From: Candidatus Woesearchaeota archaeon
GTDB lineage: Archaea; Nanobdellota; Nanobdellia; Woesearchaeales; JACPBO01
Direction: 5' to 3'
DNA length: 64,000 nucleotides
NCBI GenBank assembly: GCA_030651135.1
Contig: JAUSCS010000006.1
Location: 68,851 to 132,850, forward strand
Positions 34,410 to 61,248 of the stretch are shown in pieces. The notes beneath the pieces are model-generated. The model saw nothing but the letters and a program-made list of their open reading frames with translations. It was not told the DNA's origin and did no database searches. Position numbers and translations under genes: made by a program. Numbering within the stretch: position 1 is the stretch's first letter; each line of letters opens with the position of its first letter.

Positions 34410-34561
34410 CGCCGAGGGGGAGATTTGAACTCCCGAGCCCTTGCGGGCACTGAATCTTTACGGTACTTGTGGCGATCATAAGCACTGTTGTACTTAGCAA
34501 TCTTCCGCCATGCTTCAGATTGAAGGCATGTCAGCGCAGTACCAGGTTGTGCCACCTCGGC
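34410..34561 (-). tRNA. tRNA-Ser(GCU) with two introns (30/31: 34502-34530; 37/38: 34456-34494)
   Basis: Acceptor GCCGAGG/CCTCGGC with G73, long variable arm GCCC-GCAA-GGGC, T-arm GGGAG-TTCAAAT-CTCCC. Removing 29 nt and 39 nt restores stem CTGAA/TTCAG with loop TT-GCT-AA. The 37/38 BHB helix is TTGC/GTAA. Confidence 0.85.
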
Positions 34562-51600: not shown

Positions 51601-51750
51601 TGCATTTTCAGATCATCATCTTGCAAGGCATTCATATTGTTTATATTATAAAATATATTTTATAGTATTTTATTTATTTTATAATATACTTGAAAGAAGA
51701 AGTATTTAAGGATTGCGGTTTTTTGAAATTTGGCTAAGAAAAGGGTTAAA

Positions 51751-51841
51751 TGCACCGGCCGGGATTTGAACCCGAATAAATGGCTCGCTTCTAAGCATTG
51801 GCTAGTGGAAGGCCATTGTCATGCCATTAGACCACCGGTGC
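51751..51841 (-). tRNA. tRNA-Gly(UCC) with a canonical 37/38 intron (51786-51805)
   Basis: GCACCGG/CCGGTGC acceptor, ATGGC-CTTCCA|A-GCCAT arm, perfect BHB CTTC/GAAG. Confidence 0.93.
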
Positions 51842-51934
51842 ACAGCTTGTGAAAAACCACTTTATTTTATAAAACTTTTCATATTCGCGCTAAAAAACAA
51901 AATCTTTTTATACTTCCTTATCAAAAACGCCCTT

Positions 51935-60626: not shown

Positions 60627-60808
60627 AAGCAAAGGCACACTATAATCGTTAAACTTAGCGATAAAGCGTATCTCGTTAAAATTTTTAGTTTCTGGATAGT
60701 TGTTACCTACAAATAGAGAATCAAGAAAACATCCAAAAAACAGCATTTTCAAGCCCATTTTAAGCCACATAGCGCACCAATATTTTGTATATCAGTATAC
60801 AAAAAATA

Positions 60809-60966
60809 TGCGGAGTGCAGGACTTTCAGTTGCTCTGCAACATTCGAACCTGCGTAGGGACTGACCCAATAGGTGTCTTAATATCATTGGAAGCTGCTTC
60901 CTCAACACACCTAAGCTTGGATGATCTTTCGATCTCTATCCCGTTTGGCCACTCCGGCAACTCCGC
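60809..60966 (-). tRNA. tRNA-Leu(UAG) with three introns (30/31: 60917-60935; 37/38: 60875-60909; 59/60: 60823-60842)
   Basis: GCGGAGT/ACTCCGC-A73 and variable arm GGG/CCC. BHB helices GGAT/ATCC, CTTA/TAAG and TTCG/TGAA each have 3-nt bulges. The spliced 84-nt product has arm ATAGG-CTTAGGA-CCTAT. Confidence 0.93.
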
Positions 60967-61086
60967 ATAGTACTGATAAAAACCAACTATTATATATAAT
61001 TAACGCATTGGGGATGCTGAATTAATTGTTATTCTTGCTTAAGAAATTCCACAATAAGAATTACGTAGTTATTGCTTATTTATAAA

Positions 61087-61108
61087 GGTTTCCAATATAT
61101 TGGAAACC
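61087..61108. promoter_or_regulatory. Perfect 22-bp palindrome next to a TATA-like box
   Basis: GGTTTCCAATATATTGGAAACC followed on the minus strand by TTTATAAA. Confidence 0.55.
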
Positions 61109-61131
61109 CTTGGCTATTGTTTATAGTTCTA

Positions 61132-61248
61132 TCAAAAACCACCATTCTCAGCTATATCTGATAATGAATATTCCAATCCTCTGCCCTCTATTAATAAGTC
61201 TAAAACTCTTATTGCGGGTGAATCTTCAAATGCTTCTCTAAATGCCAT
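61132..61248 (-). pseudogene. Truncated third copy of the winged-helix regulator family (2929/57604 type)
   Basis: MAFREAFEDSPAIRVLDLLIEGRGLEYSLSDIAENGGF*; stops before the recognition helix and wing. Confidence 0.78.

Follow-up and report, generated by a model that had tools for sequence, protein, structure and literature searches.

Multiple-intron tRNA genes of Thermoproteales are reportedly the subject of work by Sugahara from 2007 and 2008. In Pyrobaculum, Thermofilum and Caldivirga, all Thermoproteales, such genes carry a maximum of three introns (PMC4033280), and both non-canonical intron positions and relaxed splicing motifs are well described in multiple-intron tRNA genes, chiefly those of Thermoproteales (PMC4033280, PMC3488258). 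Disrupted tRNA genes are also found in the DPANN superphylum, in ARMAN-1/2, N. equitans, Woesearchaeota and Pacearchaeota (PMC5829648). A survey of DPANN that included a Woesearchaeota genome reported multiple-intron tRNA genes, giving proportions per genome only; it also associated single-subunit EndAs that have an extra loop with a higher degree of tRNA gene disruption, and flagged incomplete tRNA sets for manual curation or searches (Kaneta et al., 2018; PMC5829648). A single-subunit EndA cuts strict motifs only, unless such an extra loop is present (PMC5829648, PMC3488258); the loop of N. equitans EndA is defined in PMC3488258.

The locus considered here lies in a 64,000-nucleotide stretch of DNA (hereafter, the window) and its host belongs to the same superphylum as these DPANN archaea. 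It resembles the genes of Thermoproteales in having a relaxed motif and as many as three introns, a number that the preliminary description of this DNA had placed at the high end, in agreement with the published maximum for Thermoproteales (PMC4033280). In contrast, the host is a DPANN archaeon, mesophilic and low in GC, whose only EndA gene encodes a single-subunit enzyme, whereas Thermoproteales have a two-subunit enzyme with a crenarchaeal loop. The source genome (1.42 Mb, 13 contigs, approximately 38% GC) is rated 100% complete, and the window is contained in sequencing runs of groundwater metagenomes. In the same order, genomes with the features of this gene bear the GenBank titles 'Candidatus Woesearchaeota' or 'Nanoarchaeota'. 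We consider it highly probable that the locus is a real, functional, single-copy three-intron tRNA-Leu(UAG) gene of a Woesearchaeota-type DPANN archaeon.

Structure of the gene and of its intron motifs

The gene is located on the minus strand, with its 5' end at 60966 and its 3' end at 60809, and measures 158 nt unspliced; read on that strand, it starts with GCGGAGT and finishes with ACTCCGCA. It occupies an intergenic gap, and no ORF of at least 70 aa runs across it. On the same strand, a TATA-box-like element, TTATATATAA (60990..60999), is found 24 to 33 nt upstream of the 5' end, its putative function being read from position only, and a run of six T (60801..60806), 3 nt past the discriminator, is likely, by its sequence, an archaeal transcription stop.

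Exon 1 (60936..60966, minus strand like all that follow; 31 nt, tRNA nt 1-30) supplies the acceptor 5' strand, the D-arm and the first 4 nt of the anticodon stem, and is separated at position 30/31 by intron 1 (60917..60935, 19 nt, AGATCGAAAGATCATCCAA) from exon 2 (60910..60916). The latter consists of the 7 nt GCTTAGG (tRNA nt 31-37), with the anticodon UAG inside. Intron 2 (60875..60909, 35 nt) is inserted at the canonical position 37/38, and exon 3 (60843..60874, 32 nt, tRNA nt 38-59) then provides the anticodon stem 3' strand, the variable arm, the T-stem 5' strand and TTCGAA. Intron 3 (60823..60842, 20 nt, TGTTGCAGAGCAACTGAAAG) falls in the T-loop, at position 59/60; placing it at 60/61 gives one and the same product, owing to a T at each end, and the motif is proper only at 59/60. 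Exon 4 (60809..60822, 14 nt) contributes T60, the T-stem 3' strand, the acceptor 3' strand and the discriminator A73.

Joining these exons (31 + 7 + 32 + 14 nt) yields an 84-mer that ARAGORN calls tRNA-Leu(tag). The spliced molecule is a class II tRNA with seven acceptor pairs, a 15-nt variable arm, a GCAGG/CCTGC T-stem, a TTCGAAT T-loop and A73, and it has the conserved bases U8, A14, G18G19, U33 and G37; the long variable arm, A73, a Leu anticodon and the bases of the D- and T-loops, by which a class II tRNA-Leu is recognized, are thus all present. CCA is not encoded at the 3' end of the gene. The spliced sequence shares 83-90% identity with Leu genes that are intron-free in relatives. The unspliced gene is missed by both ARAGORN and Rfam, each of which finds one other tRNA in the window. 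The preliminary description had stated that removal of 19, 35 and 20 nt leaves an 84-nt type II cloverleaf, with the anticodon carried by a 7-nt exon, GCTTAGG. Dissection of the spliced sequence confirms both statements: the coordinates are exact and the strand is minus. The identity as Leu(UAG), the three introns and their junctions are likewise upheld by in-silico splicing, by comparative data and by a natural allele without intron 1, described below.

When the precursor was scanned for bulge-helix-bulge motifs, defined as a 4-bp helix between 3-nt bulges, each strand being cut 3' to its second bulge base, all three introns were found at exactly the junctions that restore the cloverleaf, each with a central helix of 4/4. 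In the motif of intron 1, AUCC pairs with G25-U28 and a 4-bp inner stem (GAUC/GAUC) is capped by a GAAA loop, while the exon-side helix is the single pair G24-C32 (1 bp). In that of intron 2, UAAG pairs with C32-A35, the inner helix has 6 bp and is G-U-rich, and the anticodon stem serves as the outer helix, complete only once intron 1 has been removed (the helices are then of 5 and 6 bp). In that of intron 3, UGAA pairs with U54-G57, with 5 bp inside and 5 bp outside. The scan therefore bears out the earlier assignment of the helices of introns 1 and 2 to nt 25-28 and 32-35. The description of each motif as a 'textbook' one stands in part. If the strict form is taken to require 2 bp or more in each outer helix, it holds for intron 3, and for intron 2 only after removal of intron 1; it does not hold for intron 1, which is a relaxed (HBh'-like) motif because it has only 1 bp of exon-side helix.

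Splicing enzymes and a proposed order of intron removal

Both a cognate endonuclease, EndA, and an RtcB ligase (PF01139) are encoded in the genome. EndA is represented by one gene of 205 aa, which matches PF02778 and PF01974 with one hit each in the same ORF; a phmmer search for a second subunit against all ORFs of the genome had no other match below E = 1. The enzyme comprises an N-terminal and a catalytic domain, one of each, and is, by gene content, of the single-subunit (alpha4) type. Among solved structures, the N. equitans alpha subunit and the M. jannaschii homotetramer are its nearest relatives; near the catalytic His it matches M. jannaschii EndA in length, in pairwise HMMER alignments only, and is 6 residues shorter than N. 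equitans alpha. Broad-specificity EndAs, with a loop of the CSL, ASL or N. equitans type, are recognized by a basic insertion close to the catalytic His or within the N-terminal domain. The loop of the N. equitans enzyme is a 6-residue insert, which is absent from EndA here in the pairwise alignment. That the sole EndA is of the single-subunit type and, so aligned, has no insert at the N. equitans loop site is a counterpoint to the reading of the locus as a functional gene, and so is the 1-bp exon-side helix of intron 1.

Other features of the two enzymes may be mentioned. EndA has an N-terminal extension of about 33 aa, rich in Lys and Glu, which is absent from M. jannaschii EndA. Its gene (L031; G000 C7, around 303649-304275) adjoins a divergent RNase Z-type metallo-beta-lactamase gene, so that two tRNA-processing enzymes are neighbours. 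The RtcB gene (G000 C7:535893-538694, plus strand) lies within a 982-aa open frame that matches the Pfam profile in two parts separated by about 1.5 kb, a sign that the ligase gene may contain an intein.

The motifs of introns 1 and 2 are mutually exclusive, since they claim the same bases of the anticodon stem: the intron-1 motif holds G25, G26, A27 and U28 in its helix and A29, G30 and G31 in its bulges, and the canonical intron-2 motif requires A27-G31 to be paired with C39-U43. The consequences were modelled with ViennaRNA (constrained folding, 37 C). For the full precursor, the unconstrained minimum is -59.3 kcal/mol; the intron-1 and intron-3 motifs together give -58.3 kcal/mol, and the intron-2 motif with the anticodon stem and the intron-3 motif gives -43.3 kcal/mol. 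Relative to the minimum, the intron-1 motif thus costs 0-1 kcal/mol, according to whether or not the intron-3 motif is imposed as well, and the intron-2 motif costs 15-16 kcal/mol. With intron 1 removed, the intron-2 motif plus stem is 8.3 kcal/mol above the minimum; with intron 2 removed instead, the intron-1 motif is 2.2 kcal/mol above it.

Related genes behave similarly. Among 55 two- or three-intron Leu genes of relatives, the median costs above the minimum in the full precursor are 1.8 kcal/mol for the intron-1 motif and 18.4 kcal/mol for the intron-2 motif, and they are 7.0 kcal/mol for the intron-2 motif after removal of intron 1 and 2.1 kcal/mol for the intron-1 motif after removal of intron 2. 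The route from intron 1 to intron 2 has the lower worst step in 55/55 relatives, a result that is partly trivial, as a stem forced across a 19-nt insert is always costly in such models. The same nearest-neighbour energies do not recover even the mature cloverleaf as the minimum, so the splicing order is only a model. Within these bounds, the shared bases and the constrained folds agree with the earlier inference that splicing is ordered or needs refolding, and they tip the balance somewhat toward intron 1 being cut before intron 2.

Expression, cleavage and splicing order can be inferred along the following lines. The 158-nt precursor would be transcribed from the upstream TATA-like box, and the single EndA would cut inside the 3-nt bulges; RtcB would join the exons, with CCA added afterwards. 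Intron 3, in the T-loop, is structurally independent of introns 1 and 2. The primary transcript would most likely adopt the intron-1 motif first, and once intron 1 had been cut out and the exons joined, the anticodon stem could form and the canonical intron-2 motif would appear. In such an order, the 7-nt anticodon exon would stay covalently attached throughout. Four simultaneous cuts would leave this exon held by almost nothing, and the mutual exclusion of the motifs would therefore prevent its release.

It is also possible, if less probable, that the three introns are real and the order is not obligatory, with EndA capturing transient conformers and cutting introns 1 and 2 either way, or intron 2 first. 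The reverse order could be completed, since the intron-1 motif costs so little after removal of intron 2, and the cores of both motifs can coexist in one fold (-49.7 vs -59.3 kcal/mol); the energy model, moreover, is crude. Against a free order stand the cost of the intron-2 motif with its stem in the precursor, both here and in the median of the 55 relatives, and the release of the 7-nt exon that would follow if all four sites were cut together. Removal of intron 1 before intron 2 is accordingly the order that we favour.

Conservation, covariation and other readings of the locus

The ortholog in a genome of the same genus has the same three introns, with changes at 0/84 exon nt, 5/74 intron nt and 49/209 downstream nt; of the intron changes, the two that fall in intron 1 each replace a Watson-Crick pair by G-U. 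Exon 1 is identical in this ortholog and in the Leu(CAA) paralog of the source genome. Upstream of the tRNA 5' end, the window (60967-61200) is essentially unalignable with the same-genus genome L032 (110/234 mismatches), while downstream of the tRNA the sequence is 77% identical to the same-genus genome, and contigs of the variant strain stop at the 5' end of the tRNA; the break in synteny thus coincides exactly with the gene.

Many other genomes of the order have an intron-free Leu(UAG), and several have one with the 37/38 intron alone; the 30/31 and 37/38 introns occur together in others, and in still others D-loop or variable-arm introns are found. The pattern formed by exon 1, a 30/31 intron and exon 2 occurs in at least 120 species-level genomes labelled Woesearchaeota or Nanoarchaeota. 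In a sample of the order it was present in 71/401 genomes (one or two of these matches being spurious) and 61/258 genera, and a control with the pattern reversed gave 0. The search pattern left the intron base opposite exon nt 28 unconstrained, and this base (intron nt n-5) pairs with nt 28 in 105/106 distinct genes, compared with 138/318 for a control on neighbouring intron bases. The pairs are U:G in 37 genes, C:G in 38 and U:A in 30, with a single C:A; A thus stands opposite U 30 times and opposite C once, which indicates that the helix of intron 1 is under selection. The exon-side helix of the 30/31 intron is 1 bp long in 107/107 related genes.

Of 58 well-solved genes with a 30/31 intron, 52 have two introns and six have three (the parse of one, L141, is doubtful). 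The combination of 30/31, 37/38 and 59/60 recurs in one Leu(UAG) gene (L108) and in two Leu(CAA) genes (L054, L088), and two others add a variable-arm intron instead. The three-intron arrangement is therefore not unique within the clade, other Woesearchaeota having the same three positions. In L054, L088 and L108, the 59/60 intron pairs CGAA or TGAA with TTCG or TTCA, and T-loop base 57 co-varies with its intron partner (G:C, A:U, G:C; here, G:U). The variable-arm introns found in tRNA-Leu(UAG) of L130, L164 and L051 have conserved ends, ACAAG/ACAGA ... GGAGCAA/GGAGCAG, and their different third position suggests that third introns were acquired independently.

A separate peculiarity concerns the 3' ends of these genes. 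In relatives (L001, L010, L017, L030, L033, L048 and L098), many tRNA-Leu genes have, 80-170 nt downstream, a direct repeat of their own last 25-45 nt, which looks like the scar of an integration or of a small inserted cassette. In L098 this repeat produced an apparent 'four-intron' Leu(CAA) gene, rejected as an artefact because the real gene stops earlier, ahead of the duplicated copy of its 3' end.

Logan contigs from four groundwater runs were compared with the region. The source run reproduces the window, and two runs carry a same-genus variant with all three introns. A contig from run X2, generated in a different study, aligns to 60700-60958 and differs from it at 6 letters and by a single 19-nt deletion at 60917. 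This deletion is exactly intron 1 (60917-60935) and cannot be slid, because the flanking bases differ; the allele, seen in one contig at depth 4, confirms both junctions of intron 1 at the DNA level. Sister samples, at 92% likeness, gave fragmentary contigs only, and the intron-1-less allele was not reproduced in them. Given how widespread the intron is, its loss in the X2 strain seems more likely than a gain here. The intron-2 region was also looked for among JGI metagenome contigs, with no match.

With the mature sequence or the Leu D-arm motif as query, searches of the source genome recovered three such genes only, with anticodons UAG, CAA and GAG. No second Leu(UAG)-like gene was found by these searches in a genome rated complete, and the UAG gene is therefore single-copy as far as can be seen. 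The Leu(CAA) paralog (C7:308565-308736, minus strand) shares with Leu(UAG) an identical 31-nt exon 1 and introns at 30/31 and 37/38, the first of which has 32 nt and ends in ATCCAA. It differs in having two introns rather than three, the T-loop intron being absent, and its intron sequences are unrelated to those of Leu(UAG) except for the pairing tetramer. The three introns of Leu(UAG), compared with the whole genome by blastn-short, matched only themselves.

Splicing was also solved genome-wide, by trying all combinations of up to three motif-flanked segments and scoring each product as a cloverleaf. The solver chose this exact three-intron solution, with a score of 79, equal to that of the best intron-free tRNAs of the genome. 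In 400 shuffles of the interior with the acceptor ends kept, the best cloverleaf score averaged 29 (sd 7.5) and reached at most 56; the three-intron match is thus more than chance. The accompanying census comprises about 28 tRNA loci, restricted to those with an intact TTCRA T-loop, which the seed requires. Several other genes in the genome deserve comment. The Leu(CAA) paralog (G000 C7:308565-308736, minus strand), which lies outside the window, is miscalled by ARAGORN as tRNA-Asp(atc) with an 88-nt intron. At 51750-51842 of the window (minus strand), ARAGORN reports tRNA-Trp(cca) and the solver a tRNA-Gly(UCC) with a 20-nt canonical intron and the top score of 79; the Trp(cca) identity is probably wrong. 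A tRNA-Ser(GCU) at 34410-34561 (minus strand; G000 C7:103260-103411) also has introns at 30/31 and 37/38, its first intron having a central helix of only 3/4 by the solver and its cloverleaf a mediocre score of 65.

Could the locus be a decaying tRNA pseudogene or a tRNA-like remnant, with the introns as junk insertions? We regard this as very unlikely. The gene is indeed missed by standard finders, and RNA runs containing the tRNA-Leu(UAG) sequence were looked for and none was found. Decay is at odds, however, with the absence of any exon substitution relative to the same-genus ortholog while the flank differs by 23%, with a cloverleaf that is perfect down to its conserved bases, with the failure to find another Leu(UAG) gene in the genome, and with covariation across more than 100 genomes. 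A parse with fewer introns and a different identity, such as a two-intron (45 + 20 nt) tRNA-Trp(cca), whose spliced sequence ARAGORN accepts, can be dismissed as extremely improbable: it scores 56 vs 79, with a 22-nt variable region and a poor anticodon stem, the best-scoring search favours the Leu parse, and the intron-free orthologs of the locus are Leu(UAG), not Trp. A genome-wide search for the fewest introns, judged by ARAGORN, had produced false parses of this kind, including Trp(cca) here, and was replaced by the explicit cloverleaf score.

Place among disrupted tRNA genes and implications

A functional three-intron tRNA-Leu(UAG) gene is thus the reading that we retain. It is a rare arrangement of a known type, which recurs in related genomes and is nothing unusual in its clade; the 30/31 intron is an old one, linked to tRNA-Leu. 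Intron transposition, seen in Thermoproteales as near-identical introns across tRNA genes, has left no sign here. Our literature search found no description of this Leu(UAG) gene, of an order-wide 30/31 intron of tRNA-Leu whose outer helix is always 1 bp, of mutually exclusive motifs around a 7-nt exon, or of a single-subunit EndA with no visible N. equitans-loop insert in such an intron-rich genome.

A more speculative proposal, which we hold only tentatively and think may well be wrong, is that a plain single-subunit EndA, lacking the three described specificity loops, routinely cuts the relaxed motif, with its 1-bp outer helix, that tRNA-Leu has conserved across at least 61 genera, and that the D-stem may stack as a surrogate outer helix. 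The exclusion between introns 1 and 2 would then be a built-in device that forces intron 1 to be cut and joined before intron 2 and thereby keeps the 7-nt anticodon exon from ever being released.

The 158-nt gene offers a compact test substrate, with three motifs of graded strictness, two of which are mutually exclusive, for asking whether a single-subunit endonuclease acts on relaxed motifs and whether multi-intron tRNAs have a fixed splicing order. The clade-wide 30/31 intron, together with a near-identical strain precisely without intron 1, also provides a natural case for studying the gain and loss of tRNA introns. More generally, as standard tRNA finders miss the gene, genomes of the clade falsely seem to be without a CUA/CUG-type leucine decoder, and completeness estimates, like statements on the genetic code of DPANN genomes, depend on correct annotation.
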